Source: an uncultured bacterium (lineage in GTDB: Bacteria; Patescibacteriota; Microgenomatia; Levybacterales; UBA12049). From it: a stretch of 64,000 nucleotides of DNA. The notes under the pieces were generated by a model. That model worked only from the letters and a program-made list of their open reading frames with translations, did not search any database and had not been told where the DNA came from. The DNA lies in the NCBI GenBank assembly GCA_963826535.1, contig CAWGXL010000010.1:426814-490813 (forward strand), written 5' to 3'. This document shows, one piece after another, positions 5,367-63,551 of the stretch; the stretch's first letter is position 1; every line of letters begins with the position of its first letter. The translations under genes and the position numbers were made by a program.

Positions 5367-6359
5367 ATGATCCATCGTATTTTCAGATATTTACTAAAAA
5401 ACCAAGTACTATTTGCATTATTTATAGTCATTGCAGGATGGGTCTTATTACAAATTCGAGACATACTTCTTTCTGTTTTTCTCTCCTATATTATCGTGTC
5501 TGCTATATTACCCTCAGTAAAATTTTTACGGAGAAAAGGCGTCCCCAAACTACTGGCTGTGGTTATACCTTACTTTACAATGCTAGTTGCAATTTTTCTC
5601 CTCATACTACCATTAATTCCATTCATAATTTCTCAATTGCAGTCCTTAATACATAGATTTCCTCTCTATTTCAAACAAGCAAGCATCACACTCGGCCTCT
5701 CATTTGATTCTATCCAAATTCAATCTTATCTAACTAACGAATTAAACAATATTAGTAGAAATGCATTTACGTTAACCACGCAAGTCTTCGGCGGTCTATT
5801 CTCAATTATGATGATTTTAATAGTTAGTTTCTATTTACTACTATATTATGATGAATTTAAAAAATTTTTAGCAAACCTTTTCCCACATGATAATCGTATA
5901 TATGTACTTTCGACTATCGATAAAGTAAACCAAAAACTCGGAGCATGGCTTCGCGGTCAGGTTATACTTTGCTTGTTTATTGGATTATTATCCTGGATTT
6001 CTTTGACCGCCCTAGGAATCCCAAATGCATTACCGCTTGCCTTGCTTTCCGGTATTTTGGAAATAGTTCCAACCCTGGGACCAATTCTTTCAGCTATTCC
6101 GGCAGTTATAGTTGCTCTAACTATTTCGCCAACTTTAGGAATAACTGTCATTATCGTCTATATCCTCCTTCAACTCATTGAAAATAATTTCTTGGTACCC
6201 AAAGTTATGGAAAGAGCCGTAGGACTAAATCCTATCGTCGTGATTTTAGGAGTCCTGATCGGGGCTAATCTTATTGGTATTTCAGGTGCATTACTAGCTA
6301 TTCCATTGATCACATTCATACTCGTAATCATCAAAAGTCTAGAACAAAAACAACCATAA
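5367..6359 (+). CDS. AI-2E family (UPF0118, PerM/TqsA-like) transporter
   Basis: Eight TM helices. Conserved LLSGILEIVPTLGPILSAIPAVIVAL segment typical of AI-2E family. Confidence 0.7.
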   Translation: MIHRIFRYLLKNQVLFALFIVIAGWVLLQIRDILLSVFLSYIIVSAILPSVKFLRRKGVPKLLAVVIPYFTMLVAIFLLILPLIPFIISQLQSLIHRFPLYFKQASITLGLSFDSIQIQSYLTNELNNISRNAFTLTTQVFGGLFSIMMILIVSFYLLLYYDEFKKFLANLFPHDNRIYVLSTIDKVNQKLGAWLRGQVILCLFIGLLSWISLTALGIPNALPLALLSGILEIVPTLGPILSAIPAVIVALTISPTLGITVIIVYILLQLIENNFLVPKVMERAVGLNPIVVILGVLIGANLIGISGALLAIPLITFILVIIKSLEQKQP

Positions 6360-6371
6360 GTACTCAAATTA

Positions 6372-6977
6372 TCAACTTCTTTTATGAGCAGTTAAAAGAG
6401 TCCATGGGAACGGATTCTTTATCCCTGTAACATAAAAGTATTGACCGGCAAGTACATTAATCCCACTACGAGACCAATGTTGAATATGCTCAATATCATT
6501 TCCCCAACGGGAAATATTTTTCCCACGCAAAAAATTTGCCAACATAAACCAAGGCTCAAAAGGCACTGATATAATGCAATTACTTTTTGTAACTCGTTCA
6601 AGTTCTGCAAGCGCTTTTTCCGGATGATCTATGTGTTCCAGCACTTCATTACAAATAACCAGATCAAATGAATTAGCTTTAAATGGAATGTCATAAATTG
6701 TGGCTTGTTGCAATTTCAGTTCAGGATGCAACCCTCGGCCAATCTGAATTGCATTCTCCAAAAAATCAATTCCTACCAGTTTTCGTCCTATTCCAACCTT
6801 ACGAAACCTCTCAAGTGTAAATCCTTCACCACAACCCACATCCAGAATTGACTGTGGATTCAACCGCTTTACCTCACCCAATAAAGTATTGAAAAAATTA
6901 TTAATTAGATACCTCTGTACAGGATTTTTAGTGGTATGTTTAATATAGTTATCGGTTACGAGCATACATCCAATCAT
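6372..6977 (-). CDS. Class I SAM-dependent methyltransferase
   Basis: Motif I ILDVGCGEGF, acidic residue after beta-2 (GIDFLE), motif IV-like LVICNEVLEH. Confidence 0.75.
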   Translation of the reverse strand: MIGCMLVTDNYIKHTTKNPVQRYLINNFFNTLLGEVKRLNPQSILDVGCGEGFTLERFRKVGIGRKLVGIDFLENAIQIGRGLHPELKLQQATIYDIPFKANSFDLVICNEVLEHIDHPEKALAELERVTKSNCIISVPFEPWFMLANFLRGKNISRWGNDIEHIQHWSRSGINVLAGQYFYVTGIKNPFPWTLLTAHKRS

Positions 6978-7033: not shown

Positions 7034-8956
7034 ATGTTTGCTGCGTTGATTTTTACAATTTTTCCAACCATTCTTTTTTATCTCTTTTTCAATAAAATTA
7101 TAAAAAGCATTTTTCTAAAACTTTCCTTTTCTTGGTTTTGTGGTCAATTTATTATGGCAATTATAACTTTTCTGGTTGCAATAGTCATTTCGCATTTTAC
7201 ATCGAATATATTAGTAAAAGCTGAATTAATAACTCTTATTGCATTGACTATAATTTTACTTTTATTCAGCAAACGAGTTTTAAGTATAAATGAAAATATC
7301 AAATTAAATAAAACATTTTTATATAAAATTATCATTCTACTTTTTGTTTTCTCATTTTCTTACTTCTTTTACACACCACACTTGAAAATAAACAATGGAA
7401 TAATTTACACCAGTTATGCATATTGGGACTTCCAATGGCACGCGCCTTTAATTCAAAATTTCGTCTATGGTGACAATTTTCCTCCTCAAAATGAATCTTT
7501 TGCTGGAATGCCTCAAACATATCATTTTTTTTGGGGATTTCTTGTTTCTATTTATAATTCAATTGGCTTAGATCTGGTATATGCAATAAATTACTTCAGC
7601 ATTATCAGCCTCTTCTTCTTATTATTAGCTATTATTGGTTTATCTGAAGAATTATTGAAATCATTTACAGCCGGAATTCTGGCTGTACTCTTAAGTTTAA
7701 CCTCATCAAGCCTTCGTTTTATACATCATATATTATATTCCCAAAACGAAAATCTTATACATTCAATAAACAACATATTAACCAATTCTCTTCATCCATT
7801 CTTTTTTTCTTTTGTGCCTGGTAATCCATATGGATATAACGGAACAATATTTAACATGTTCTATTTTTTAGCAGAAAGGCAAATGGTTTTCGCAATAATA
7901 TTTTTATTATTCTCCGTCTGGGTAATTTATAAAAGAAGAAAAATATCATATAAATATCTCATAATAATTGGAGCTCTAATGGGTACATTTTTCTTGTGGC
8001 ATTTATATATTACAATCATGGCGCTTTGCGCAATTTTCTTTACTTTAGTAATAGATAAGGATAAAAAGAGAACATTTGTTTTATTTTCAACCTTTAGTAT
8101 TGTGTTTATCTTACACATTTTATACTTCAATGGCATCACCGACTCTATTTGGTTTCATCCGGATATAAAAACTTTTCCCAGATTCAATTTCAATTTTCCG
8201 ACAATGCCACATGAATACCCTTTAACAATTGCTAATACTTTAAATTATTATCTTTATGCTTACGGTTTTAAAATTATATTTCTAATATTTGGATTAATTT
8301 ACCTTTGGAAAAAAAATAAAAAAATTTTGTTTATTACGGCATCTTTGCTAATACCTACTTTTATCTTGGTTAATACTGTTCAACTATCGCCTTTATCTAT
8401 TTATGATAACCACAAATGGTTAAGACCTATGAATGTGATAGTTGATATAATTGCCGGTTTCGCACTTTTACGAATTTTTTTGTATAAAAAGAATGCTTTA
8501 TTTATCTCGACCGGAATATTCTCACTAATTCTCCTTACAACCTCAGGCTTTATAGAATTACCACCTTTTTTCAATTCAAATCAATACAATACATACGTTC
8601 AATCTCAATCACCCCTAATACACGCAATAAGAAAAGAAACTAATCCTGGGGACATTTTTTTAGCATATTCAAATAAAGAAATTCAAATAGCAGGTAGAAA
8701 AGTTTTTTTAGGTGACTATGCCGGACAAAACCTGGGACTGAGAAAAGATTTAAGAAAAAAGATAATTAAAAATATCTATACATCTGATAGTTTGGAAAAT
8801 TTTTGTTTTCTAACTCATAAACATAATATAGATTATGTTGAAGTTGATACCAGCCAATTAGACCAGGAAAAGGCTATAATATTTAAAGCCTTAGATGGAG
8901 AAAATAAACTACGATCTTATATCAATACCTCACAAACTTGCAGAACATCAAAGTAG
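7034..8956 (+). CDS. Large polytopic membrane protein, possible ArnT/PMT-like glycosyltransferase
   Basis: 640 aa with many TM helices and a C-terminal soluble region. No diagnostic motif recognised. Confidence 0.35.
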   Translation: MFAALIFTIFPTILFYLFFNKIIKSIFLKLSFSWFCGQFIMAIITFLVAIVISHFTSNILVKAELITLIALTIILLLFSKRVLSINENIKLNKTFLYKIIILLFVFSFSYFFYTPHLKINNGIIYTSYAYWDFQWHAPLIQNFVYGDNFPPQNESFAGMPQTYHFFWGFLVSIYNSIGLDLVYAINYFSIISLFFLLLAIIGLSEELLKSFTAGILAVLLSLTSSSLRFIHHILYSQNENLIHSINNILTNSLHPFFFSFVPGNPYGYNGTIFNMFYFLAERQMVFAIIFLLFSVWVIYKRRKISYKYLIIIGALMGTFFLWHLYITIMALCAIFFTLVIDKDKKRTFVLFSTFSIVFILHILYFNGITDSIWFHPDIKTFPRFNFNFPTMPHEYPLTIANTLNYYLYAYGFKIIFLIFGLIYLWKKNKKILFITASLLIPTFILVNTVQLSPLSIYDNHKWLRPMNVIVDIIAGFALLRIFLYKKNALFISTGIFSLILLTTSGFIELPPFFNSNQYNTYVQSQSPLIHAIRKETNPGDIFLAYSNKEIQIAGRKVFLGDYAGQNLGLRKDLRKKIIKNIYTSDSLENFCFLTHKHNIDYVEVDTSQLDQEKAIIFKALDGENKLRSYINTSQTCRTSK

Positions 8957-9848: not shown

Positions 9849-10577
9849 TTATACCTTTGGCGTTTTACCATAAACCGTTACCAAAGTTCCCGGATTCTCG
9901 GCAGTCGGATAGCTAACATTTCCCGCATTAGGATTCGCCCAGTAAAAAACTTTTTCCGCATCGGCTATACGCATATTTACGCACCCGTGACTCATGGGTT
10001 GACCAAAATTGTCATGCCAATACGCTCCATGAATAGAAAACCCCCTGGATTTAGCTATTTTGCTGTTATGGTAGAACATAGTATAAGGAACATTTGGTAA
10101 ATTATAATAGCCTGCACCTGAACCCCCGGACATACGAGTATATCGAAGCCATACCCAAATCCTAAAATCTCCAGTTGGGGTTGGATACCATTTACCTGTT
10201 GAAACCGGCATATCCATTACTTTATTATTACCTTCAAATGCATATAGGCGTTGATTAGTAAGGTCTACATATATATGTTTATAGTCGCCCGCCTGATCTG
10301 CTAGTACATCGACCTGCTTACTCAGCGCCAACTTTGACTTGTCAGGTAAAGTAGGGGATTTAACTGTTTTTCCCATAAAGACGCCTTGTTCTTCTGATTC
10401 TTTAGCTCCGGAAAGATCACTTATACAGCTAATTGAGTTAGCGCAGGGGGCTTGCTGTTTAGTAGACAAGAATACCATTCCCGTAACAAGTAATAATACA
10501 GTCACAATTCCAAGACTAAGAACTAAAGATGAATCGAGCTTCTTTGATCTAGTTGTATGCGCTTTTTTCCTCATCAT
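9849..10577 (-). CDS. L,D-transpeptidase (YkuD domain)
   Basis: Signal/TM N-terminus. Catalytic motif HGAYWHDNFGQPMSHGCVNM (His ... SHGC[IV]R/N-M). Confidence 0.8.
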   Translation of the reverse strand: MMRKKAHTTRSKKLDSSLVLSLGIVTVLLLVTGMVFLSTKQQAPCANSISCISDLSGAKESEEQGVFMGKTVKSPTLPDKSKLALSKQVDVLADQAGDYKHIYVDLTNQRLYAFEGNNKVMDMPVSTGKWYPTPTGDFRIWVWLRYTRMSGGSGAGYYNLPNVPYTMFYHNSKIAKSRGFSIHGAYWHDNFGQPMSHGCVNMRIADAEKVFYWANPNAGNVSYPTAENPGTLVTVYGKTPKV

Positions 10578-10617
10578 TTATAGATTAGACGAACTTTAAT
10601 TAAAAGTAAAGTAAGAG

Positions 10618-10646
10618 TTGCAAAAAGTCTTATAGTATTGTATAAT
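10618..10646 (+). promoter_or_regulatory. Near-consensus sigma70 promoter
   Basis: TTGCAA (10618-10623), 17-nt spacer, TATAAT (10641-10646). Lies 23 nt before the ATG at 10670. Confidence 0.5.
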
Positions 10647-10669
10647 CAACCTCTGTAACGTAATTATAT

Positions 10670-11326
10670 ATGTATATAAGAAAATTAATTAGATCTATTG
10701 TAATATTTGTTATTATTTCTGTTTGTATTTTTCAAATTCCAACCATGCAGTTTTTTTCTGCGGAAAAGCCTCTGCTTGCAGAACATACAATATCACTAAA
10801 TAGCCGCTATGGTAATATTAGTGTTAATAATGTTTTTAAAAATAATATTCTTTTAACTCTAGCCTATATGTCTGGGACGGTGAACAACAAATCTGATATT
10901 AACTGGCAGGAAATTGATAAGCCATTCCATTATAATTATGTGCTTCAACCCGGTGAAGTTTTCGCATTTCATGATGATATTCTCCCTTCTTATAAGGATA
11001 AACGCGTTAGTACTACGAATGCAAATTTTGGTGCAAACGAAGGTTTCTTATCAGATGGTCTTTTGTACGGAGACGGAGTTTGTCATTTAGCGTCTCTAAT
11101 CAGTTGGGCTGCAAAAGACGCGGGATTATCAGTTTTAGCACCAATCAAACATGATTTCGCAAACATTCCTGAAATACCTAGAGAGCATGGAGTATCAATA
11201 TATTCTGCACCGGGTCAAACAGGAATTAATCAGGGGCAAAATTTATATATAGAAAACACACTTGGAACTCCCGTTATATTCTCGTTCGACTACAATAATG
11301 GTTTTTTAAACCTTGCTATTTATTGA
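10670..11326 (+). CDS. VanW-like protein (putative)
   Basis: N-terminal TM, then GDGVCHLASLISWAAKDAG resembling the VanW GGVCQ[VL]S[ST]TL motif. Confidence 0.4.
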   Translation: MYIRKLIRSIVIFVIISVCIFQIPTMQFFSAEKPLLAEHTISLNSRYGNISVNNVFKNNILLTLAYMSGTVNNKSDINWQEIDKPFHYNYVLQPGEVFAFHDDILPSYKDKRVSTTNANFGANEGFLSDGLLYGDGVCHLASLISWAAKDAGLSVLAPIKHDFANIPEIPREHGVSIYSAPGQTGINQGQNLYIENTLGTPVIFSFDYNNGFLNLAIY

Positions 11327-12124
11327 TGAAAAAACAAACTTTTCAATCACATGCGCAACCCCATCGTCATTTACGCTTGGAGCAATATAATCTGCAATCT
11401 TCTTAAGCCCTGGTACTGCATTGCCCACCGCAACACGCAATCCACATGCTTTGAAAAGCGGAAAATCATTATATCCATCTCCCACACCAATAATATCAGC
11501 CTTTGTTACTTTAATTAGCTCCGCGTATTTTAACGCGGCATATTTTTTAGTGGCTTGAGAATGAGTAATATGCAAAGCAACACACCCCTGATGATAAGCG
11601 ACCACCTTAGTTAATGCCAAACTATGGTAATGCGATAAATTACGAATTATCATATCCGCTCTTTTTTCCTGTATTCGGGGAATAAAAAAACTAATAGGTT
11701 TTCTTAAATTTAGGTTTTGTGTATAGATTTGTTCGCGGTTGTTATCAACTATCCATACTTTACTGGTAAGTTGATTAACAATACTGGTTATATTTTTTAA
11801 GTCTTTTTGAAGAATTTGTCTTTCCCAAAGAATTTTCCGGGAAACAGGATTTACAATTTGTGCTCCGCCATTTATAATGCAGGGTCCTTTTAGGCCTAGT
11901 TCCTTAAACAAAAACGTCACTCTGTCTAACGCCCTACCGCTCGCTATTCCAATTTTTACATTCTTTTTAGCATTTATAATTGAATCATATACTCTTTTGC
12001 TGATTCTTCCGTTATATTTATTTGTAACTAGTGTTCCATCTATATCACATAGCATTGCTTTATACTTGTGTTTATATTTTTTCCCCATTAATTCTATTTT
12101 AGACATATCTAGTTGGAATTGCAA
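11306..12124 (-). CDS. HAD-IIB (Cof-type) hydrolase / sugar phosphatase
   Basis: Motif I CDIDGTL, motif III/IV GVGDGYNDFPLFKACGLRVAVGNA. Confidence 0.8.
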   Translation of the reverse strand: MQFQLDMSKIELMGKKYKHKYKAMLCDIDGTLVTNKYNGRISKRVYDSIINAKKNVKIGIASGRALDRVTFLFKELGLKGPCIINGGAQIVNPVSRKILWERQILQKDLKNITSIVNQLTSKVWIVDNNREQIYTQNLNLRKPISFFIPRIQEKRADMIIRNLSHYHSLALTKVVAYHQGCVALHITHSQATKKYAALKYAELIKVTKADIIGVGDGYNDFPLFKACGLRVAVGNAVPGLKKIADYIAPSVNDDGVAHVIEKFVFSSINSKV

Positions 12125-12637: not shown

Positions 12638-12711
12638 GCGGGCGTAGTTCACCGGTAGAACGCCTCCTTGCCAAGGAGGAGGTAGTGGGTTCGATCCCCA
12701 TCGCCCGCTCC
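12638..12711 (+). tRNA. tRNA-Gly (anticodon GCC)
   Basis: GCGGGCG/TA/GTTC-ACCGGTA-GAAC/G/CCTCC-TTGCCAA-GGAGG/AGGTA/GTGGG-TTCGATC-CCCAT/CGCCCGC+T. Confidence 0.85.
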
Positions 12712-12774: not shown

Positions 12775-13572
12775 TTACGCAACCCCAATCTTCCAAAGAA
12801 TATCAAAGTAAGACTTCATAGCCTTCTTAATATTACTATCCTCAAAAACAATATGTATACTTGGTACTGCGCTGAAAATGCTAATAACAATATGATTTTG
12901 CCAAACTTGTATCTGCAGTGGAGAAGAATCCGCCGTTTCGATATATTTATATTTTCTCTTTAGCTCTTGTGGCTGATTTGCAAAAAATACTCTATTATTA
13001 TACTCAACCTGACCTCGAAATGCGGTGAAACACGTTAGCAACAATCTAATTTTTTTTTCAAGCCGTACTTTCTCAAATAGTGAAAGTTTACCTGATTCTA
13101 CCATAGCCTCGCGCCATGCTTGAGGATGAACACTTATTACAAATATGTCTTGTCCTGCAGGCTGCATTTTTATAAGCCTTATCTGCAATAGACCATAAGC
13201 GTGATTACCCATAAAGACGTTTACTTTTGGTTGCTGAGATTCTGCAGCGACCTCAAGAAGCGGCTTGAGGAGAAAATCAAATTTTTCTCTTTTTGCTTCT
13301 AATATCTCTTGGAGTTTGGATATTGGTACTGCCTGAATTTTTTTATTTCGGCCTAAACGACTCAAGTGAACAGTCCCTTTTCGCTCCATTTTCTTAATTT
13401 CCCGCTGAATTGTCTCTCGGTGAATACCTGTTTCCTTGCGTAGTCTTTCCACGCCAGTTACCCCTATTCGTAAAAGCGCAAGATAAATAGCTGCTTGGCC
13501 TCTATTATCAAACAATTCACCGGTTTGATTGAGACTGTCTATCAACTCATCCATGAAAATATTATAACACAT
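12775..13572 (-). CDS. TrmB-family winged-helix transcriptional regulator (paralog 1)
   Basis: N-terminal HTH: AAIYLALLRIGVTGVERLRKETGIHRETIQREIKKMERKG. C-terminal domain ends ...YFDILWKIG, like the other two paralogs. Likely true start is MDELIDS at 13554. Confidence 0.6.
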   Translation of the reverse strand: MCYNIFMDELIDSLNQTGELFDNRGQAAIYLALLRIGVTGVERLRKETGIHRETIQREIKKMERKGTVHLSRLGRNKKIQAVPISKLQEILEAKREKFDFLLKPLLEVAAESQQPKVNVFMGNHAYGLLQIRLIKMQPAGQDIFVISVHPQAWREAMVESGKLSLFEKVRLEKKIRLLLTCFTAFRGQVEYNNRVFFANQPQELKRKYKYIETADSSPLQIQVWQNHIVISIFSAVPSIHIVFEDSNIKKAMKSYFDILWKIGVA

Positions 13573-13600: not shown

Positions 13601-14542
13601 ATGAATGAAGAGCTTATACTAAATGCCTCTATGACCTTTCTTGAAAAATTCGAAATTCTGAAAAAATCAATCCCAGTCCCGGCTGTTACAATTGGTCCAT
13701 ATACTGTTGATTGTGAATACGTCGAATATCTTTATAGGAGCAAAAATTGCTATTTCATACTTGATGGATTCTATCTAGAAGATTGTTTATATATAAGATA
13801 CGGAGCATTTTCTAAAATACTGGTCGACTGCGGTTCTGTGTTCGAATCGGAGAAATGTTATGAAAGTATTGATTCCAATAAGTGTTATAGTTGTACATAT
13901 GTTATGGACTGCTACGGAAGTACAGATTGCCACTTTTCAGCATTATTAAACGCTTGCACTAACTGTTTCGGCTGCGTCGGACTTAGTCATAAAAAATTTT
14001 GTATACTTAACAAACAATATACCAAAGAAGAATATTTAAAAGAGGTTGAGAGACTAAAAAAAGAGAATCCTGAAAAGCTACTCGCCCAAATGTTAGATTT
14101 AAAGCAGCAAATACCTCATCCCGCAAACCGGCAATCCAATACCCAAAATTCTCCATACGGTAACTATATATATGATTCAAAAAACTGTTATTGGTGTTTT
14201 AATACATTACATAGTGAGAATTCCGGTTACACTTATTATCACTCTAGAGCAGTAAACTGTTGGGACATGTATCGCGGAGGCGGAAATCCTGAAACCAACG
14301 CCCAGACTGAGCGGTGCTATGAGAATACTGATTCAACCTGCAATTACGAATGTGCATTTGTAGCATTTAGTGATAATTGCTCAAATTGTTATTATAGCTA
14401 TAGACTTGTAAACTGCACAGACTGCTTCGGGTGTGTCGGGTTAAACAATAAAAAGTATTGCATTTTGAACAATCAACTGACAAAGGAGCAATACGAAAAA
14501 ACCGTGCTAGAATTCAAAAAAGAATTGGGCTGGATGGTTTAG
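13601..14542 (+). CDS. Cysteine-rich tandem-repeat protein (novel; 25 Cys in 313 aa)
   Basis: Two ~135 aa internal repeats, each ending C[TV][ND]CFGCVGL[SN][HN]KK[FY]CILN[KN]Q[YL]TKE[EQ]Y. A [DN]C[YFHW] ladder recurs every 9-11 residues. No signal peptide. Confidence 0.6.
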   Translation: MNEELILNASMTFLEKFEILKKSIPVPAVTIGPYTVDCEYVEYLYRSKNCYFILDGFYLEDCLYIRYGAFSKILVDCGSVFESEKCYESIDSNKCYSCTYVMDCYGSTDCHFSALLNACTNCFGCVGLSHKKFCILNKQYTKEEYLKEVERLKKENPEKLLAQMLDLKQQIPHPANRQSNTQNSPYGNYIYDSKNCYWCFNTLHSENSGYTYYHSRAVNCWDMYRGGGNPETNAQTERCYENTDSTCNYECAFVAFSDNCSNCYYSYRLVNCTDCFGCVGLNNKKYCILNNQLTKEQYEKTVLEFKKELGWMV

Positions 14543-14547
14543 CAGTA

Positions 14548-15288
14548 TTATATCGGAACCGCCTTTTGCCAATATTTATCAAAAATCCGCTGGAAATGTT
14601 GATTAATCCCTCTATGTACGAAGCGCACTCCGAACTGTTTTGACCTGTCTTTCGGATCATACATCATCACATAAGAAATATTCTCATCATATAAGACTAA
14701 ATGCCAGTCAAAAGATTTGGCAAATCGAATAACAGCACCAATATGCTTATAACTCAAAAGCGCATTATGATTTTCTTTAGTATGTTCCAGAGCTATAATC
14801 TTTAGATCCACACCTCGTTTTACTGCTTGCAAATTTGCATATAGGTACTCATTCGGAACTCCGATAGATAATACTGAATAAATATATTTAATATTTTGTT
14901 TTGTTTTACCTAGATCCGGTATATTTTGCCTAATCAAGTCGTCTCTTCCTTGTACAAACGAAATATTAAATATTTTGTCATCTTGGAGCTCATTTGTAAC
15001 AGCCCGAAACTCCAGATCAGAAAACAGATTGTGGAACCAACTCCTGGCTTGCATAGCATAATTTTCACCGGCCTCACTAATTTGCTTTGCCCGATAGGTA
15101 ACAGGATAGGTATCCTGCTGATCAATTAAGCTAAGTCTAAGTAAATGTTCAACCAATGGATATACTTGCTGTGATTTAATATCAAGCTCCTCTCCAATCG
15201 ATTTTGCGTTTAGTTCACGCTTTTCAAGTAACAATTTATACACAGCATGTGCCTGCTTTGATAATCCCATAGCAAACTGATTTTTCAT
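14548..15288 (-). CDS. TrmB-family transcriptional regulator (paralog 2)
   Basis: HTH: AHAVYKLLLEKRELNAKSIGEELDIKSQQVYPLVEHLLRLSLI. C-terminus ends ...IFDKYWQKA. Confidence 0.6.
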   Translation of the reverse strand: MKNQFAMGLSKQAHAVYKLLLEKRELNAKSIGEELDIKSQQVYPLVEHLLRLSLIDQQDTYPVTYRAKQISEAGENYAMQARSWFHNLFSDLEFRAVTNELQDDKIFNISFVQGRDDLIRQNIPDLGKTKQNIKYIYSVLSIGVPNEYLYANLQAVKRGVDLKIIALEHTKENHNALLSYKHIGAVIRFAKSFDWHLVLYDENISYVMMYDPKDRSKQFGVRFVHRGINQHFQRIFDKYWQKAVPI

Positions 15289-19466: not shown

Positions 19467-20255
19467 TCATTTTATATCGTCCCAGATATTTTTAAACACC
19501 TCACGCAGATTATGAGCAAGAGTAGCATCTCTGATTTCTAGAAGATAAAAAGGGTGTTCTCGTGTATTTATCATTATCACATAGTTCCCGATAATCCATG
19601 TGGTTGCTGTAAATTGGCTCGCCTTGCTCCAGAACTTAATTTCCCGCCTTGTATATATATCTTTAAGCGCCTGCTCGGTCTGAGATGTATTGCTCAATAA
19701 TTTTACTGTCAGACCAAAATGTTCATGTTCCCAAAGCCATTCAAGCCATTTTTTATAATGCTCAACAAGTGTGTGATCCTGAAAACCCCAATTTATACCA
19801 TCAGTTTTCATTGCGTCTTTATACCAATTTTTCGAACGGGTATACAAATACTCCTCCAGTTGATTTTCTTCGATAAATCGGATTCGTGGTACCGAAAATT
19901 TTTCTGTTTTGAATAGTTGCGAGAGATCTGCAACAGTCTGGTTTATTAATCCTTCTTTTTTACCCAATGCAACCTTTTCTTTTTCTATAAGATTACCAAG
20001 CTCCATTGGCGGCAATGCAACTAAAGAAATTTTTTTACCGGCAAGATCTTCTGCAATAACCCCCTTAGCAACAAGGCTTTTAGCAATCGCGTACACAGTC
20101 ACTCTCTTAATATTGGTTATTGTGGCAAGCTCAACAGGTGTAGCTCGACCAAGACCAAGTAATGCTTTATAGACCTCAATCTCTTTTTGCTTGAATCCAA
20201 GCCTTATTAGATTTAAATAAAGATTTTCCATAATTTTATTATACATTGTTGTCAA
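19467..20255 (-). CDS. TrmB-family transcriptional regulator (paralog 3)
   Basis: HTH: EIEVYKALLGLGRATPVELATITNIKRVTVYAIAKSLVAKGVI. C-terminus ends ...VFKNIWDDI. Divergent from the ABC transporter operon. Confidence 0.65.
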   Translation of the reverse strand: MTTMYNKIMENLYLNLIRLGFKQKEIEVYKALLGLGRATPVELATITNIKRVTVYAIAKSLVAKGVIAEDLAGKKISLVALPPMELGNLIEKEKVALGKKEGLINQTVADLSQLFKTEKFSVPRIRFIEENQLEEYLYTRSKNWYKDAMKTDGINWGFQDHTLVEHYKKWLEWLWEHEHFGLTVKLLSNTSQTEQALKDIYTRREIKFWSKASQFTATTWIIGNYVIMINTREHPFYLLEIRDATLAHNLREVFKNIWDDIK

Positions 20256-20283
20256 AATATTGTCAACATATGTCGGACAAATC

Positions 20284-20312
20284 TTGACATAGTAAACTTT
20301 TTTAGCTACAAT
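20284..20312 (+). promoter_or_regulatory. Consensus-like sigma70 promoter of ABC transporter operon, with adjacent TGTCAA/TTGACA repeats
   Basis: TTGACA (20284-20289), 17-nt spacer, TACAAT (20307-20312). Upstream are GTTGTCAAaatatTGTCAAC repeats, a candidate operator. Confidence 0.5.
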
Positions 20313-20318
20313 CTCACA

Positions 20319-21179
20319 ATGAAAAACTCAATAATCATTTTACTAGTAGCTATATTATCACTAGCGGTCTCGTTTATTGGAACTAGAATTTTTTTAACAA
20401 ACACAGATCAAAACCAAGACCTTTTAGCTAAAGTTTTGGACCGTGGAGAAATTCGAGCCGGGTATATCGTCTATCCTCCATCATTTATTAAAGACCCGGC
20501 TACAGGAAAGATGTCAGGTATTACTTACGATGCTATAGAAAAAGCGGGTAGAAATCTTGAACTTAAAATAAATTGGGTAGAGGAAACAGGTTGGGGAACC
20601 ATGATTGAAGGCTTAAATACCGAAAGATATGACATTGTTGTGAGTGGAATATGGCCGAACTCTGTACGAGGAAAAAATGCTGACTTTACAATCCCTTTAT
20701 ATTACAGTGCAGTTGGCATTTATACACGTACCAATGATGATCGTTTCTACGAATTAAGTAAAATAAATAATAAAGATGTAACTATCGCTACAATTGACGG
20801 CGAAATGTCATCTTTTATCACTAAAGCAACATTTCCGAAGGCTAAGACTCTTTCCTTGACACAGGATGCACAGATTTCCCAATTGTTGCTTAATATAAAA
20901 ACCGGAAAAGCTGATGTGACTTTTGTTGAAACAGCAATAGCCCAAGAATTTCTAGCAAACAATCCTGACTCGATAAAAAATATTGTACCAAACAACCCAA
21001 TACGATCCTTCGGTAACTCTATTCTTGTACCGAAAAATCAGGAGGGTTTCAAATCAATGATGAATACTGCTCTCGAAGAATTATTTAACAGCGGGTACAT
21101 AGATGAATTACTAAAGAAATACGAAAAATATCCCGACTCATTATATCCGGTAGCGAAGCCATATGCCACTCCCATCTAG
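20319..21179 (+). CDS. ABC transporter substrate-binding protein, polar amino acid family (paralog 1)
   Basis: N-terminal signal anchor plus family-3 SBP fold. About 75% identical to paralog 2. Confidence 0.7.
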   Translation: MKNSIIILLVAILSLAVSFIGTRIFLTNTDQNQDLLAKVLDRGEIRAGYIVYPPSFIKDPATGKMSGITYDAIEKAGRNLELKINWVEETGWGTMIEGLNTERYDIVVSGIWPNSVRGKNADFTIPLYYSAVGIYTRTNDDRFYELSKINNKDVTIATIDGEMSSFITKATFPKAKTLSLTQDAQISQLLLNIKTGKADVTFVETAIAQEFLANNPDSIKNIVPNNPIRSFGNSILVPKNQEGFKSMMNTALEELFNSGYIDELLKKYEKYPDSLYPVAKPYATPI

Positions 21180-21206
21180 CTCACTATGATATAATCCATT
21201 AAGTCT

Positions 21207-22067
21207 ATGAACACTACAAAAACAATTCTACTTGTAATCGTAGTGGCGCTAATTACATCTTTAATCGGAGTCAAGATTTTTTCCGACAACACAAGCAAAA
21301 AGGAAGACCTTTTAGCCAAAGTTTTGGCAAAAGGTGAAATTCGTGCTGCATATTTCATATATTCGCCGACATTTATTAAAGATCCCAATACTGGAAAATT
21401 CTCTGGCATTTTCCATGACGCTCTCGAAGAAGCTGGGGGGAACCTCAACTTAAAAATTAATTGGGTTGAAGAAGTCGGCTATGGCGAGATGCTCGAAGGT
21501 CTGAATGCCGGGCGATACGATATTATTGGGAGTAATGTATGGCCTAACTCAACACGTGGGAAAAATGCGGACTTCACTATTCCATTATATTACAGCGGGG
21601 TTGGTATTTATACCCGTACTGGTGATGACCGTTTCTCTGACTTAAGTAGTATAAATAATAAGGAAGTTACAATCTCTACAATTGACGGCGAGATGTCCTC
21701 CTTCATTGCCAAGACAACTTTTCCGAATGCCAAAACGCTCTCACTACCACAAAATACACAGTTTTCACAAATATTGCTCAATATAAAAACTGGTAAAGCA
21801 GACTTAACTTTTGTGGATGAAGCAATAGCCCAAGAATTTTTAGCTAACAACCCGGACTCAGTGCAAAATATTGTGCCAGGTAATCCAATCAGGTACTTTG
21901 GCAACACTATAGTTGTACCGAAAAATCAGGAAGGGTTCAAATCAATGATTAACACTGCTCTGGAAGAGTTGTTAAACAATGGATATATAGATGAATTAAT
22001 AAAGAAATACGAAAAACATCCCGGCTCGTTATATCCGGTAGCAAAACCGTATACTCCGCCTAATTAA
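21207..22067 (+). CDS. ABC transporter substrate-binding protein, polar amino acid family (paralog 2)
   Basis: Tandem duplicate of 20319-21179. Same length (286 aa). Confidence 0.7.
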   Translation: MNTTKTILLVIVVALITSLIGVKIFSDNTSKKEDLLAKVLAKGEIRAAYFIYSPTFIKDPNTGKFSGIFHDALEEAGGNLNLKINWVEEVGYGEMLEGLNAGRYDIIGSNVWPNSTRGKNADFTIPLYYSGVGIYTRTGDDRFSDLSSINNKEVTISTIDGEMSSFIAKTTFPNAKTLSLPQNTQFSQILLNIKTGKADLTFVDEAIAQEFLANNPDSVQNIVPGNPIRYFGNTIVVPKNQEGFKSMINTALEELLNNGYIDELIKKYEKHPGSLYPVAKPYTPPN

Positions 22068-22074
22068 TTCATAT

Positions 22075-22935
22075 ATGAATATAAAAACTATTTTACTCGT
22101 TGTTATAGTTGCTATTATTGCTTCTTTTGTGACGTCCAAAATTTTATCGGATAAAACATATAATTCGAACAACATGCTGGATACAGTTTTAGAAAAAGGA
22201 AAAATCCGAGCTGCATATTTAGTCTATCCGCCGTATTTTATTAAAGACACTAAGACCGGGAAATTTTCAGGCATATTTTACGATATAACAGAGTTATTAG
22301 GTAAAAAACTTGATCTAAAAGTAGAATGGACTGAAGAGGTTGGCTTTGCGGATATATTTACAGGTCTTGACAGTGGACGCTATGATGTTTTTGCAGGAGG
22401 ACTCTGGCCCGGCGCAACTCGCGCAAAAGCCGGATATTTCTCAACTCCCGTTTTTTACAGTCTAATAAAAGCCTGGGGAAGAGCCGATGATCATAGGTTT
22501 GACAACAATCTCGCGGCTATTAATTCTCCAAACGTTCATATTTCCACTATAGACGGAGCAATGGAGGATATTATTGCCAAAGCAGATTTTGAAAAAGCAC
22601 AAAGAGAATCATTGCCCCAACTAAGTCCATTTACACAAAATTTTCTAAATATTACCTCTGGCAAGGCAGACGTTACATTTGCAGAACCTTCTTCTGTTCA
22701 CTTCTTTTTGAAAAACAATCCAGGCACACTGAGAGAAATCGCTCCGAACCAGCCATTACGTATATTTGGAAACAGCCTAGTCTTAAAAAGGGGGGAAGAT
22801 GAATTTAAGCAGGTGATTGACGCAGCCATCGATGAAGCCGTCTTTAGCGGAGAGATAGATAAGATTTTAAAAAAATATGAATCTTCTCCGGATGAATTCC
22901 CCAGACCCGCACTTCCTTATGCCCAGACTAATTAA
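22075..22935 (+). CDS. ABC transporter substrate-binding protein, polar amino acid family (paralog 3, divergent)
   Basis: Same length and architecture. About 40% identity to paralogs 1 and 2. Confidence 0.65.
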   Translation: MNIKTILLVVIVAIIASFVTSKILSDKTYNSNNMLDTVLEKGKIRAAYLVYPPYFIKDTKTGKFSGIFYDITELLGKKLDLKVEWTEEVGFADIFTGLDSGRYDVFAGGLWPGATRAKAGYFSTPVFYSLIKAWGRADDHRFDNNLAAINSPNVHISTIDGAMEDIIAKADFEKAQRESLPQLSPFTQNFLNITSGKADVTFAEPSSVHFFLKNNPGTLREIAPNQPLRIFGNSLVLKRGEDEFKQVIDAAIDEAVFSGEIDKILKKYESSPDEFPRPALPYAQTN

Positions 22936-22938
22936 CGC

Positions 22939-23604
22939 ATGAACGTAATAGATATCATAATTAATTTTAGAGAAGCTCTTGTCGCTGGACTTCTTGTCAC
23001 TTTAGGATTATGCCTTATTGTTTGGCTATCAGGCATGATATTTGGCGTGCTCTTTGGTTGGCTTGCTCACCGTAAACAAGAAAATGTCGGATACGCTTTA
23101 AAAATTTCGTCATTTCTTTTAGCAAGTATTCCTCTTCTGGTTTTATTATTTTGGCTTCACTACCCACTCCAAGAATTGTTAGGAGTTGTAATTATTCCAT
23201 TCATCACAGCGGCAGTAGCTCTTTCACTTCTAAATATCGTTAGTGTTGCCCAAATAGTAAGAGACGTGCTTGCTGAATTTCCGGAGGAATACAGAATAGC
23301 AGGAAAAGTTTGCGGACTTTCAGAAAAAGAAATTTTTGCCAAAATAGAATTCCCGATTATCTTTCGTCAAATCATTCCTCAATTTCTGACCCTGCAAGTG
23401 AACATGCTCCAAATGACTTTATTTGCAAGTCTTATTTCTGTTGAAGAAATCTTCCGCGTTGCCCAAAGAATAAATTCAATGATTTACAAACCTGTCGAGA
23501 TTTATACAGCGCTCGCGATCTTTTTCATTGGTATCTGTCTGCCCCTAAATATTCTTGCCTACTGGCTGAAAAACAAATACACGAGAAATTTATCTGAAAA
23601 ATAA
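22939..23604 (+). CDS. ABC transporter permease (polar amino acid, HisM/GlnP-like)
   Basis: Five or six TM helices. EAA-like loop ...SVEEIFRVAQRINS. Confidence 0.7.
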   Translation: MNVIDIIINFREALVAGLLVTLGLCLIVWLSGMIFGVLFGWLAHRKQENVGYALKISSFLLASIPLLVLLFWLHYPLQELLGVVIIPFITAAVALSLLNIVSVAQIVRDVLAEFPEEYRIAGKVCGLSEKEIFAKIEFPIIFRQIIPQFLTLQVNMLQMTLFASLISVEEIFRVAQRINSMIYKPVEIYTALAIFFIGICLPLNILAYWLKNKYTRNLSEK

Positions 23605-23605
23605 T

Positions 23606-24325
23606 ATGCTACAAGCAACTAACATTACAAAATCAATAAATGGCAGAAGTATACTAAAAGACGTTTCACTTTCGCTGAAAAGCGGAGAAATAGTTTCCAT
23701 AATCGGCCCCAGCGGAGCAGGAAAAACTAGTTTACTTCGGGCAATCTCATTGATTGATCTGCCAAACTCCGGCTCTTTGACTATTGGAAAAGAAATCTAT
23801 CAATTCCCCATAATTCAAAGTGAATTGCTGAGATTGCCATACCCTGATTTAACAGTTGTATTCCAACAACTCTTTATCTGGCCGCATTTAACAATCAGAC
23901 AAAATCTCACCCTTCCGCTGAGAGAAAATATTGACCAAAAACACTTTAAAGAAATGACTGCATTGTTCCAAATGAATTCGTTTTTAGATAGGTATCCGAA
24001 CGAAGTATCTCTAGGCCAACGCCAAAGAGCCGCACTCGTACGCGCTTTATTACTAAAACCAAAATATCTCCTGCTCGATGAGGTAACCTCTGCTTTAGAT
24101 ATAGAACAATCACATCTTATCCTAAGTCACCTCAAGCATATTGCCGAAAAGGGTGTTGGTATAATGTTTGTGAGCCACGCACTGCATTACGTCAGCAAAA
24201 TCAGCGATAAGGTTATCTTTCTCGATAATGGATTAGTTTCAGAAGAAGGAAAAAACGACATTTTGACTAAACCAAAAACAGAGCGGCTGAGAAAATTTAT
24301 TAAAGTTTCCCAACAAATTTTTTAA
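23606..24325 (+). CDS. ABC transporter ATP-binding protein
   Basis: Walker A GPSGAGKTS, signature LSLGQRQRAALVRAL, Walker B LLLDEVTSALD, H-loop FVSHA. Confidence 0.85.
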   Translation: MLQATNITKSINGRSILKDVSLSLKSGEIVSIIGPSGAGKTSLLRAISLIDLPNSGSLTIGKEIYQFPIIQSELLRLPYPDLTVVFQQLFIWPHLTIRQNLTLPLRENIDQKHFKEMTALFQMNSFLDRYPNEVSLGQRQRAALVRALLLKPKYLLLDEVTSALDIEQSHLILSHLKHIAEKGVGIMFVSHALHYVSKISDKVIFLDNGLVSEEGKNDILTKPKTERLRKFIKVSQQIF

Positions 24326-53346: not shown

Positions 53347-53691
53347 TTAAAGTTCCTGTAGAATTACTATAGCGTCACCTAAATTATCGTAATATTCAAC
53401 TTTAAGAATGTGCACGCCCTCGGTAAGTGTGACTGTTGGTGTATATGTTGTAATATCATGGTCAGTCCAATCATCTACGAGTAATTGGTCATCAACCCAA
53501 AATCGAACACCGTCATTTGATTGAAGGCTAAAAGAATAGTCACCAGCCGCGAATTGTTTCTCCTTAATCCATCGGGCTGAAAACTGATCTACATTTACTA
53601 ATGGATCCGGCGAGCCTGCACCCCAATTAAAATTAATTTGTGCGTCCTGACGAGTCAGAACTGGAGCGCCCGTCAATGCGATATTATTGAA
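53347..53691 (-). CDS. PA14 domain protein, C-terminal fragment truncated at the compositional junction
   Basis: NIALTGAPVLTRQDAQINFNWGAGSPDP...DQFSARW...GDYSFSLQSNDGVRFWVDDQLLVDDW is a canonical PA14 fold. The apparent N-terminus MLEPGLLHF is antisense of the fumC start region, so the true 5' end is missing. Confidence 0.6.
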   Translation of the reverse strand, partial: FNNIALTGAPVLTRQDAQINFNWGAGSPDPLVNVDQFSARWIKEKQFAAGDYSFSLQSNDGVRFWVDDQLLVDDWTDHDITTYTPTVTLTEGVHILKVEYYDNLGDAIVILQEL

Positions 53692-55114: not shown

Positions 55115-55136
55115 CTCTGCAGTGATTTCCGGCGGC

Positions 55137-55430
55137 CTACTGGCCAGTGTAGGACATCATCCCCAGACCGATCAGCCAGGCGGCCAGCCAGATCTGGGCC
55201 ACGGCAACGAAGAAGTCCTTGCGCGTCTGGCGCACCGGATCGTCTTCGTGCGTGTCGTGGTGCGTGTCGTGTGACATCAGTGGTTCCCCCAGGGCGAGTG
55301 ACGTGTCGCTTATGAGCACAGGGTGTGCCAATTCAGAACGCGCGAAAAACTGGGATTTCGGCGTGTATTGTCTCCCCCAGTGGGAACTTGTCGTAATACC
55401 CCCGTGAAACGGGCACCTCACTTCTTCCAT
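55137..55430 (-). CDS. Small His-rich membrane hypothetical protein
   Basis: MSHDTHHDTHEDDPVRQTRKDFFVAVAQIWLAAWLIGLGMMSY; one TM. Weak. Confidence 0.25.
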   Translation of the reverse strand: MEEVRCPFHGGITTSSHWGRQYTPKSQFFARSELAHPVLISDTSLALGEPLMSHDTHHDTHEDDPVRQTRKDFFVAVAQIWLAAWLIGLGMMSYTGQ

Positions 55431-55794
55431 GTGGCCTGGATGGGCTGGCGTTAATGGAACAGCTGTAGCCCGGGAGCCAATCGTCCGCCTGGGGGTTCAT
55501 GACGTCCGCCGGTCGCCGGTCGTTCGCGCTGCTGTGGTGCGCCTTCTTCGTGAACCTGACGGTCGCGTCGCCGCCTGGTCAGGGTCCAGGCCTAGGCAGT
55601 GCCGCACCGGGATCGCCAGGGCGGAGAGCGCGTCGAGACTTTGCGGCCCCCTCTTCCAGGCGCGCTCAACGGCGCGGCCGCCGTGAGCGTCGTCGACTGA
55701 CAGCGGCTCGGCCTCTTGACAGATATCTGTTACAGATATATCTGTCACGGCTACGTCATGGAGTCCCGCACGCCTACGTCTTCTTCCCGTCCTG

Positions 55795-57851: not shown

Positions 57852-57877
57852 CCCCGCGCGCAACGCGCCTCGACCTG

Positions 57878-59307: not shown

Positions 59308-59379
59308 TCGATACAGTTGTCGGTGCCGGTGAGGCGCCTCTGCACCAAGGCGCGGTGTGCAGTTCTGGGCGGCGCCGCG

Positions 59380-60078: not shown

Positions 60079-60102
60079 TGTGAATTGTGAATTGCCTTCC
60101 CC

Positions 60103-60912: not shown

Positions 60913-60935
60913 GGCGTGCAGCATATACTGCCGCG

Positions 60936-63548: not shown

Positions 63549-63551
63549 TCG

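Follow-up and report, generated by a model that had tools for sequence, protein, structure and literature searches.

On the forward strand of the window, by which we mean the whole 64-kb stretch of DNA that was analysed, lies an open reading frame (ORF) for a protein of 313 amino acids with 25 cysteines, flanked on either side by a gene for a TrmB-like HTH protein (Table 1). The product is 100% identical to the database protein P0001. No signal peptide or transmembrane (TM) segment was found in the 313-residue protein, whose N terminus is not hydrophobic and whose highest Kyte–Doolittle mean over 19 residues is 1.17. On length, cysteine count and lack of a signal peptide, the ORF, its translation and the hydropathy scan agree with the original prediction; the gene is genuine and its product soluble and cytoplasmic. 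Translation probably starts at M11 (ATG at 13631), because 50 aligned homologues begin at M11 or a few residues off. The window protein has a pI of 5.4 and, like the family to which it belongs (medians 5.6–6.2), is mildly acidic.

The two tandem repeats proposed earlier were borne out by an internal duplication of residues 20–155 and 166–308 (39% identity, E = 2e-33). Each repeat is about 140 residues long. The blocks that end them, CTNCFGCVGLSHKKFCILNKQYTKEEYL and CTDCFGCVGLNNKKYCILNNQLTKEQYE, have the same residue at 20 of 28 positions. The cysteines had been described as a ladder of [DN]C[YFHW] units every 9–11 residues. A regular ladder is indeed present, but the strict motif occurs only eight times ([DN]C alone is present at 14 of the 25 cysteines) and the spacing follows a triplet register instead. 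All 12 gaps between successive cysteines of repeat A are multiples of three (12, 12, 15, 9, 9, 3, 6, 6, 9, 3, 3 and 9), as are 20 of the 24 gaps in the whole protein, a regularity matched by none of 100,000 random placements (p < 1e-5).

Table 1 Features of the locus, with positions in the window
Feature	Position	Strand	Basis and details
Gene for the Cys-rich, predicted twin-solenoid protein	13601..14542	+	313 aa, stop codon within coordinates; ORF and translation
TrmB-like HTH gene, divergent, candidate regulator	12775..13572	-	PF01978, 28.2 bits against a cut-off of 25.6
Second TrmB-like HTH gene, convergent, ending 5 nt past the stop codon of the Cys-rich gene	14548..15288	-	PF01978, 34.5 bits
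Predicted N-terminal helix, aa 12-23, FLEKFEILKKS, then conserved IPxP loop into solenoid A	13634..13669	+	AlphaFold model, H13-23
Predicted beta-solenoid A, aa 35-141, about 9 rungs of 12 (9 or 15) residues, each third residue buried	13703..14023	+	Triplet register, DSSP of the model, Cys-column substitutions
Conserved cap block A, aa 119-146, CTNCFGCVGLSHKKFCILNKQYTKEEYL; putative metal site C119, C122, C125 and C134	13955..14038	+	Conservation
Two predicted linker helices between the repeats, aa 142-170	14024..14110	+	AlphaFold model, H142-152 and H157-170
Predicted beta-solenoid B, aa 183-294, with variable loop aa 223-238	14147..14482	+	Model, internal repeat alignment, entropy profile
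Conserved cap block B, aa 272-299, CTDCFGCVGLNNKKYCILNNQLTKEQYE; C272, C275, C278 and C287	14414..14497	+	Conservation
Predicted C-terminal helix, aa 295-309, then conserved ELGW tail	14483..14527	+	Model, H295-309

An AlphaFold model built from a 121-sequence alignment (pLDDT 90.8, pTM 0.83) has four-residue strands every 9–12 residues and single bridges every three residues; it superseded an earlier run with 51 close homologues, which had a pLDDT of 74 and meaningless Foldseek matches. All 13 cysteines of repeat A fall in one triplet register, and the every-third-residue series of the core reads TCVLSCIGLCIGSLCVSCSSCCVCSCSLCCCL, that is, C/S/V/L/I/G, so that these residues would fill a core with 12 residues per turn. 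The cysteine ladder of solenoid A would then run C38-C50-C62-C77-C86-C98-C110-C122-C134. Residues at both ends of the protein are near-invariant in aligned homologues (F13, L20 and P25; E308, L309 and W311). Foldseek matched the model to beta-helix proteins only (LpxD, GlmU, LpxA, gamma-carbonic anhydrase and phage hexapeptide proteins; E from 1.5e-5 to 1e-2), in keeping with the original guess of a beta-solenoid. The TM-scores of these matches are very low, 0.09–0.18 (rmsd 14–19 Å), and the fold assignment therefore rests on the local geometry of the model and on the sequence register rather than on a global structural match. On this basis the protein very probably consists of two tandem narrow beta-solenoids with about 12 residues per turn and every third residue facing the core. 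We place the same high confidence in the gene being real, in its membership of a family and in the cysteine ladder serving as core packing.

Since all significant Foldseek matches are left-handed beta-helix (LbetaH) proteins, the protein could be read as a divergent hexapeptide-repeat acyltransferase or an enzyme like gamma-carbonic anhydrase, and a weak profile match to maltose O-acetyltransferase (E = 0.096) on the motif NCPYGDYIYNSKN points the same way. The resemblance to LpxD, LpxA, GlmU and gamma-carbonic anhydrase is confined to local solenoid geometry, however: global superposition fails at the TM-scores and rmsd given above, and the register is 3/12 residues rather than the 6/18 of these enzymes. 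Pfam matches to Hexapep ([LIV]-[GAED]-x2-[STAV]-x repeats) were found in none of 121 members and not in the query, and the conserved histidine or catalytic motif of such enzymes, with its trimer-interface catalytic residues, is absent, as is profile similarity. Homology to hexapeptide transferases was rejected when hhalign against E. coli LacA returned a probability of 0.3%. We regard an enzyme of this kind as extremely improbable.

An architectural parallel is the antifreeze protein of the insect Tenebrio molitor (TmAFP, PDB 1EZG), built from the repeat TCTxSxxCxxAx. Like TmAFP, the window protein would have a coil of about 12 residues with small residues (Cys, Ser, Ala) at each third position that fill a very narrow core, a cysteine ladder along the axis and turns of the form [DN]-C-[aromatic or polar], as reflected in its triplet register (p < 1e-5) and in the strands every 9–12 residues of the model. 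TmAFP is a secreted eukaryotic protein of 84 residues with all cysteines in disulfides and a threonine-rich ice-binding face. The window protein, by contrast, is cytoplasmic and bacterial, and has two predicted solenoids with helical linkers, replaceable cysteines and a conserved Cx2Cx2C...C cap; the co-variation of cysteine pairs that intra-coil disulfides would leave was not found. TmAFP was absent among the 50 Foldseek PDB matches listed, and homology was rejected by hhalign (probability 0.6%, with a sequence confirmed as that of 1EZG). TmAFP is thus an architectural analogue and not a relative, and the 12-residue beta-helix of insect antifreeze proteins would have, in the window protein, a counterpart from the bacterial cytoplasm.

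From the regular spacing the original prediction suggested a cysteine or metal ladder, possibly for storing metal or Fe-S or for redox; such a ladder would hold metal ions or clusters in a row. In favour of this idea are the 25 cysteines in a strictly regular register, the likeness of Cx2Cx2C to Fe-S proteins and the exchange of cysteine for histidine at the fourth cap position. The family at large contradicts it. Across 543 relatives Ser, Val, Leu or Ile stand in freely for the ladder cysteines, unlike the family-wide conserved ligands of a metallothionein; Thr and Ala also occur in these columns, and in long forms the ladder positions are only 6–57% cysteine. Because Ser, Val, Leu and Ile can take their place, the ladder cysteines are very probably core-packing residues and not a metal ladder. 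Cysteine content ranges from 1.0 to 11.9% and peaks in the expanded short-form clade (median 9%), and no strong co-varying cysteine pairs, as would mark disulfides or metal pairs, were found in the family alignment. Moreover, there is at most one conserved site per solenoid, and the genes beside family members encode an ATPase and zinc fingers rather than metal transport or Fe-S assembly proteins. A storage or redox role is therefore very unlikely. No match to ferredoxin, radical-SAM or SPASM models was found in Pfam or NCBIfam at E up to 1, and CxxCxxCxxxCP and CxxxCxxC are absent; the motif present is Cx2Cx2Cx8C without a proline. The core residues are mostly cysteine in the lineage of the window protein and Ser, Val, Leu or Ile in relatives.

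The only conserved cysteine feature of the family is the terminal cap, Cx2Cx2C-x8-[C/H/Y] followed by I-x-N-x-Q-x5-Y. In cap A, C119, C122 and C125 are 89–97% conserved and position 134 is C, H or Y; 26% of long forms have the combination CCCH and 16% have tyrosine in fourth place. In cap B, C278 is kept in 85–99% and C287 in 85–94%, and C272 and C275 occur together in about half of the family. Judging from the 12-residue register, the four cysteines of a cap may cluster in space. We see an even chance that each solenoid holds one structural metal ion in its cap, with Zn as the first guess and an Fe-S cluster as the alternative. Given the tyrosine in 16% of long forms and the frequent loss of two cysteines from repeat B, such a site would not be universal. 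If real, a metal site Cx2Cx2C...[C/H] inside a 12-residue solenoid lined with cysteines would make the protein a new fold variant.

The protein had also been singled out as the most novel in the window, a view that found no support, the protein being one of very many members of an unnamed family that, by the sources of its members, is restricted to Patescibacteria (CPR). One search returned 3,705 homologues and another more than 7,300, and clustering at 50% identity gave 2,243 clusters. Every source with a name is CPR and the remainder are MAGs. The best homologues (E from 1e-133 down to 1e-50) cover 96–97% of the query, and the homology of the window protein to the family runs over its full length and takes in the two FGC-x5-K-x-Y-C-I-x-N-x-Q-x5-Y cap blocks. 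Among the invariant columns are F123, C125, K131, C134, N137, Q139, Y145, G277, C278, Y286, C287, N290, Q292 and Y298. The earlier failure to recognise a standard cysteine-rich pattern was well founded: no known family for the core domain was found in Pfam, NCBIfam, PADLOC or PDB sequences with the single sequence, or in Pfam or PDB with family alignments. Literature searches returned no description of the family, and the words zinc, cysteine, solenoid, beta-helix, paralog and VirD4 are absent from the text of the Cell 2023 Saccharibacteria Tn-seq paper. Much of bacterial diversity is patescibacterial, and for most conserved proteins of this group no function is known. The family is a large blind spot, with thousands of members and as many as about 30 copies within a genome below 1 Mb, yet missing from Pfam, NCBIfam, PDB and the searchable literature.

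Paralogues are numerous: about six lie on the window's own contig and at least 28 on one related contig of 894 kb, and 43 of 80 GTDB loci hold two to six family copies on one strand. They often resemble copies from other genomes more closely than their own neighbours, and the array paralogues are ancient. Long-form orthologues are 50–70% identical across different CPR classes. Among paralogues, entropy is lowest in cap block A and variation sits in discrete surface stretches. Searches for mobile-element boundaries found none, the flanking DNA not being conserved among copies in the closest genome. A phage origin was rejected, with a single family match in 2.9 million viral contigs.

The commonest neighbour of the family is a VirD4/TrwB-type ATPase with an N-terminal DUF8128 domain, which passes the Pfam thresholds for TrwB_AAD_bind, T4SS-DNA_transf and TraG-D_C and weakly matches TraD, VirD4-like and CedD models. 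Its gene is present in 28 of 80 family loci, directly adjacent in 23 of them and with six 4-nt overlaps, and absent within 6 kb in about two thirds. A reciprocal test that started from the ATPase found family genes in 28 of 80 loci, nine of the 11 closest among them. As a CPR genome of roughly 1 Mb has about two such VirD4-type ATPase genes (PMC12102498), adjacency would arise by chance in about 2–3% of cases. The operon order ATPase, zf_Tbcl, family gene, family gene occurs in those accessible relatives that are closest to the window protein. Proteins with zf_Tbcl or zf_Tbcl_2 (PF13451, PF23477; TIGR04272, CxxC-x17-CxxC) are the other recurrent companions: treble-clef modules of this type are fused to both ends of long forms, and short forms have a zf_Tbcl ORF of about 92–115 residues just upstream. 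The solenoid core is a domain separate from this module and is in no library.

The window gene departs from this canonical context of tandem array, zf_Tbcl and DUF8128-TrwB ATPase. Neither a zf_Tbcl ORF nor a VirD4-like ATPase gene was found in the 64-kb window, tblastn detected a single family copy there, and the window protein itself has no zf_Tbcl module. The gene stands alone as a dispersed paralogue, apart from the canonical operon, and a partnership of this copy with the ATPase is therefore extrapolated from its paralogues.

VirD4-type ATPases are abundant in CPR and unlinked to type IV secretion genes, possibly 'exapted for other functions'; most CPR T4CP genes lie far from virB4 and have no known role (PMC12102498). 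The operon link offers a concrete candidate partner for these orphan ATPases and a testable hypothesis for cultivable Saccharibacteria. The gene arrangement is that of VirD4, TrwB and TraD coupling proteins with their clients, the family often being translationally coupled to the T4CP-type ATPase. It differs from those systems in the distance of CPR T4CP genes from virB4, in that many of the ATPases lack a membrane anchor, and in having no evident secretion signal or relaxase. That the family works with a VirD4-type ATPase seems to us rather probable. We propose, as the likeliest role, that the rigid solenoids would display variable surfaces, formed by the N-terminal rungs of each repeat, upon a constant cap, and would act as binding, specificity, adaptor or cargo modules alongside the DUF8128-TrwB ATPase, perhaps in physical contact with it. 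This specific adaptor or cargo mechanism is a tentative proposal, at roughly a one-in-three level of belief. For the explanation as a whole, which joins a twin-solenoid family protein, a cap metal, a role as ATPase adaptor or cargo and TrmB control, we would put the chance slightly below even.

The same operon link, to an ATPase that passes T4CP-type Pfam thresholds, would also be expected of secreted effectors that the coupling ATPase passes to the Patescibacteria type IV secretion system for delivery to the surface or the interior of the host bacterium; once secreted, the cysteines would form disulfides that stiffen the rod as in insect antifreeze proteins, and the expansion of the family would reflect host adaptation. 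Consistent with this, ATPases beside short-form genes have an N-terminal TM helix like canonical coupling proteins, cysteine content is highest in that expanded clade (median 9%), at least 28 paralogues share one 894-kb contig and variation is confined to discrete surface stretches. However, orthologues that are 50–70% identical across CPR classes and paralogues that are ancient would be unusual for effectors, many linked ATPases have no TM segment, and the cysteine pairs lack the co-variation expected of obligate disulfides. Furthermore, T4CP genes lie far from virB4, and the S. epibionticum homologue is dispensable for epibiotic growth (PMC12102498). Secretion as effectors is, on balance, improbable.

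Alternatively, the zinc-finger and solenoid proteins may bind or pilot DNA or RNA for an FtsK/VirD4-type translocase in uptake, segregation or transfer, perhaps in place of relaxase-type partners, which are nearly absent from CPR (PMC12102498). The treble-clef zinc fingers at both ends of long forms would suit such a role, as would an ATPase of the DNA-translocase superfamily with its weak TraD, VirD4-like and CedD matches. One member is labelled 'Zn ribbon nucleic-acid-binding protein' by its source, and one well-conserved single copy lies between the genes for IleRS and RecO, overlapping both and translationally coupled to them. Against this speak the mild acidity of the proteins (pI 5.4 for the window copy; medians of 5.6–6.2 in the family), the lack of any recognisable nuclease, HUH or other DNA-binding domain, and the complete absence of a zinc-finger module from the window copy. 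We consider nucleic-acid handling of this kind a distinctly minor prospect, less credible than secretion. A broader and rather unlikely conjecture is that twin-solenoid proteins, treble-clef proteins and the 'orphan' DUF8128-VirD4-type ATPase would form an undescribed system universal to Patescibacteria. Arrays of anciently diverged solenoid paralogues would there serve a hexameric translocase as clients, or as subunits that set its specificity, each exchangeable for another, and the system would move DNA or protein between episymbiont and host. If true, it would explain the purpose of the roughly two VirD4 homologues per CPR genome.

The original prediction placed the gene under a TrmB-type regulator. 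The divergent gene upstream is TrmB-like by PF01978, and its product matches over its full length (E = 9.4e-11) a profile made from TrmB-like genes beside family arrays in 11 other loci, 10 of them divergent. This divergent arrangement occurs in the window, in 10 of 80 GTDB loci and in two metagenome loci. A search of the 28–58-nt divergent intergenic region for an operator or promoter, however, gave nothing above shuffle background, the one weak palindrome lying inside the ORF. The window holds three TrmB-like genes, one of which controls an ABC transporter locus; as such genes are common in this genome, adjacency alone is weak evidence of regulation. We infer that the divergent gene probably controls the window copy. 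The product of the convergent TrmB-like gene did not match the array-associated profile at E below 1. Elsewhere in the family, the single copy between IleRS and RecO would also fit a housekeeping, nucleic-acid-related role.

The predicted ORF is a real gene under purifying selection, whose product has the 313 aa and 25 cysteines claimed for it. Translation probably starts at M11, because homologues begin there, and tblastn of the window found a single family copy within it. The product lacks a hydrophobic N terminus or transmembrane (TM) segment (19-residue Kyte-Doolittle mean ≤1.17), in agreement with the cytoplasmic location assigned to it. It also contains the two repeats described: residues 20-155 align with residues 166-308 at 39% identity (BLASTP, E = 2e-33), and the blocks that end the repeats agree at 20 of their 28 positions. 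The original prediction of a [DN]C[YFHW] ladder was borne out for the motif, which occurs eight times in strict form, but not for its spacing of 9-11 residues, which is better described by a triplet register. The 13 cysteines of repeat A all share one residue class modulo 3. Over the whole protein, 20 of 24 Cys-Cys gaps are multiples of 3, a count reached by none of 100,000 random placements.

Coordinates of the features in the window and in loci of family members from other genomes
Feature	Location	Strand
Window: tRNA-Gly(GCC)	12,638-12,711	
Window: upstream TrmB-like gene	12775-13572	-
Window: gene of the Cys-rich twin-solenoid protein	13601-14542	+
Window: probable true start of that gene, ATG (M11)	13631	+
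Window: region containing the third TrmB-like gene	19,467-24,325	
Window: third TrmB-like gene	19467-20255	-
Window: three tandem 286-aa paralogous genes	20319-22935	
Window: shift in G+C content	around 53,700	
Window: high-GC region	53,680-64,000	
L014: single-solenoid gene	6016-6462	
L082-L085: long-form gene	10001-11749	
L002: small toxin-antitoxin/mobile-element-like gene	5496-6007	
L168: small toxin-antitoxin/mobile-element-like gene	7593-8000	

The protein has a twin narrow beta-solenoid architecture, as had been guessed. Every third residue of repeat A gives the series T C V L S C I G L C I G S L C V S C S S C C V C S C S L C C C L, whose members are exclusively small or aliphatic, and the remaining two phases consist of polar, turn-forming (D/N/G) or aromatic residues. 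AlphaFold gave a pLDDT of only 74 with 51 close homologues as input, and a pLDDT of 90.8 and pTM of 0.83 with 121 sequences that included distant long forms. The model has a short helix followed by 4-residue strands every 9-12 residues (approximately aa 60-140), with single bridges at every third residue, then two helices (142-170), the strand pattern again (approximately 205-290) and a C-terminal helix. The Foldseek matches listed, from the PDB and viral models, were all to beta-helix proteins (LpxD, GlmU, LpxA, gamma-carbonic anhydrase and phage hexapeptide proteins; E down to 1.5e-5), which means that the solenoid geometry is alike locally, without a global match. That family proteins are hexapeptide-type enzymes, the fourth-ranked alternative, was rejected, as TM-scores to these matches were 0.1-0.18 and a profile test against LacA gave a probability of 0.3%. 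The same test did not uphold a weak match to maltose acetyltransferase (E = 0.096). The Tenebrio antifreeze protein TmAFP, with its repeat TCTxSxxCxxAx, has a beta-helix of 12 residues per turn, the architecture read in the triplets of the window protein, but homology between the two is absent (hhalign probability 0.6%). The TmAFP sequence used for this comparison was confirmed as that of the PDB record 1EZG. The protein was also rightly held to be no standard Cys-rich domain: its sequence had no match in Pfam, NCBIfam, PADLOC or the PDB, and family alignments left the core domain without a match in Pfam and the PDB.

Each Cys column was tabulated over 543 non-identical family members after alignment to the family profile. 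In ladder columns, the share of Cys is 34-86% for the short-form clade and mostly only 6-57% in long forms, where C50, C86, C95 and C104 remain at 72-91%. Lost ladder cysteines are replaced by Ser, Val, Leu, Ile, Thr or Ala; for example, C263 is V/L/I (6% Cys), C251 is I/V/L and C110 is V/S. Because ladder columns are replaceable, Cys content varies across the family (1.0% to 11.9%) and presence-absence pairs among Cys columns show no strong coupling (maximum phi 0.56, for the 272/275 CxxC), the Cys ladder is core packing and not a ligand chain. These conservation data contradict metal or Fe-S storage, which the original prediction had raised and which ranks third among the alternatives. The caps, the blocks that end the solenoids, are conserved. 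In cap A, C119, C122 and C125 are kept in 89-97% of the family, and position 134 holds Cys in 83% of short forms, against 44% Cys, 28% His and 20% Tyr in long forms; in cap B, C278 and C287 are kept in 85-99%, and roughly half of the family has both C272 and C275. With a 12-residue register, C119, C122 and C125 would fill three of the four core positions in the last full rung, with C134 stacked on C122. This clustering, together with the Cys/His exchange, points to a putative single metal site per solenoid cap, for which Zn and Fe-S are both candidates.

The family is large and restricted to CPR. A 90%-clustered collection contains 3,705 homologues of the window protein at E ≤ 1e-3 (2,243 cluster representatives at 50% identity), and a long-form query returned more than 7,300, a lower bound. 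Named sources are Patescibacteria throughout, the rest being unnamed or mislabelled MAGs, and there was one match on viral contigs. Source annotations read 'hypothetical protein', with the sole exception of a JGI record, 'Zn ribbon nucleic-acid-binding protein'. Long forms (approximately 560-600 aa; 50-70% identity between orthologues from different CPR classes) carry zf_Tbcl and zf_Tbcl_2 treble-clef fingers on both sides of the twin-solenoid core; short forms (approximately 300 aa) consist of the core only, usually with a separate zf_Tbcl ORF of 92-115 aa upstream. The short form is expanded in the window lineage, with about six paralogues on the window's own 494-kb contig and at least 28 on a related 894-kb contig. 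The fold class is already known, as is the superfamily of the partner ATPase described below; new here are the sequence family, the cap motif and the linkage to orphan CPR T4CPs, none of which was described in searchable libraries or papers.

Variant forms were also seen. In the closest available genome (L014), a 148-aa single-solenoid version joins the N-terminal part of repeat A directly to the cap and tail of repeat B (...CFGCVGLKNKKYCILNNQLTKDQYEKAVREIKKELEWR), the product that recombination between the near-identical cap blocks would be expected to yield; a Fic-like gene (HPFxDGNGR motif, by eye) follows it. In three loci from Peribacteria and unclassified CPR MAGs (L049, L068 and L075), family genes appear under table 11 as same-strand strings of 70-150-aa fragments, as would be expected if UGA is read as a sense codon (genetic code 25).

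Among 80 family loci from GTDB species representatives, 43 hold same-strand tandem arrays of 2-6 family genes. Array members share 30-50% identity and often have their nearest relative in another genome, so the paralogy is ancient. Clustering the neighbours of all family loci gave two recurrent partners, an ATPase and a TrmB-like regulator. The ATPase (600-900 aa) scores above the Pfam thresholds for TrwB_AAD_bind, T4SS-DNA_transf and TraG-D_C and has DUF8128 at its N terminus. Its gene is present in 28 of the 80 loci, directly beside a family or zf gene in 23, with 4-nt overlaps at six junctions. A reciprocal metagenome scan seeded with the ATPase gave 80 loci, of which 28 hold family genes; 9 of the 11 closest matches are among these 28. 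Orders such as ATPase-F-ATPase and ATPase-F-F-ATPase (F, family gene) recur. A survey of Patescibacteria counted 5,713 VirD4-like T4CPs in 2,918 genomes, just 148 of them near virB4, and its authors noted that the VirD4-like gene may be exapted for other functions (PMC12102498). As this amounts to about two copies per approximately 1-Mb genome, adjacency within 6 kb would arise by chance in about 2-3%. The family is linked in operons to zf_Tbcl modules and the VirD4-type ATPase; the nearest accessible relatives of the window protein have the order ATPase, zf_Tbcl, F, F and sometimes a third F. Neither an ATPase gene nor a zf_Tbcl ORF was found in the window, whose copy is a dispersed, stand-alone paralogue.

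Among close paralogues, variation is centred on the N-terminal rungs and one loop per solenoid, whereas the caps are nearly invariant, which suggests a constant end for docking or metal binding and variable recognition surfaces. On the best reading of these data, family proteins would serve the VirD4-type ATPase as rigid modules for specificity, as adaptors or as cargo, and each solenoid cap would hold a structural metal. First among the alternatives is that family proteins are exported effectors of the CPR type IV system; second is that they are nucleic-acid-handling factors of a DNA translocase. The family may mark a distinct, CPR-wide system coupled to the ATPase, a proposal that we put forward tentatively and consider rather doubtful.

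Several further features of the family loci were observed. In eight loci (L004, L005, L009, L011, L013, L021, L026 and L080), ATPases encoded convergently to short-form genes carry an N-terminal TM helix (Kyte-Doolittle 2.0-3.2), whereas same-strand ATPases adjoining long forms mostly lack one; the partner ATPase therefore has membrane-anchored and soluble sub-families. In four Giovannonibacteria loci (L082-L085), a single long-form copy, highly conserved, shares 8 nt with the end of IleRS and 4 nt with the start of RecO and is translationally coupled; this IleRS is unusually long (1,163 aa, with a His_Phos_1 insertion), and several aminoacyl-tRNA synthetase genes lie nearby. Arrays elsewhere are interrupted by toxin-antitoxin-like, Fic-like and ORF6N/KilA-N-like genes (by eye), and small toxin-antitoxin or mobile-element-like genes lie beside or inside arrays in L002, L168, L033 and L063. 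By eye, these inserts are HicA/HicB-like, nucleotidyltransferase/HEPN-like, RelE-like and ORF6N/KilA-N-like; precomputed Pfam matches add TumE and a Y1 transposase. Such gene content suggests that the arrays lie in plastic genome regions.

The second partner, a TrmB-like regulator of approximately 250 aa, adjoins the array in 11 of the 80 GTDB loci, divergently in 10, an arrangement also seen in two metagenome loci. The window protein had been placed under a TrmB-type regulator, and the gene upstream of it indeed matches the array-associated TrmB profile over its full length (E = 9.4e-11), in the arrangement that recurs in those 10 loci; a search for an operator or promoter of the window gene found none that was prominent. 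Regulation by the divergent TrmB-like protein is a plausible hypothesis. TrmB-like genes are frequent in the window's genome, and the best match to the profile is a third one (E = 3.5e-14). Divergent from it are the three tandem paralogues, whose translations, read by eye, resemble ABC-transporter solute-binding proteins with an N-terminal hydrophobic anchor, followed by permease-like and ABC ATPase-like genes; this third regulator is a putative controller of an ABC-transporter locus. The block of TrmB, Cys-rich and TrmB genes directly adjoins the tRNA-Gly gene, with 63 nt between the latter and the 3' end of the upstream TrmB-like gene; tRNA genes are common integration sites. Towards the end of the window, G+C content shifts within a few bases from approximately 0.32-0.45 to 0.66-0.71, beyond which both strands show long overlapping GTG-start ORFs of the kind typical of high-GC DNA. 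This junction resembles a chimeric join or two unrelated sequences that were concatenated, the second of which does not appear to be CPR DNA.
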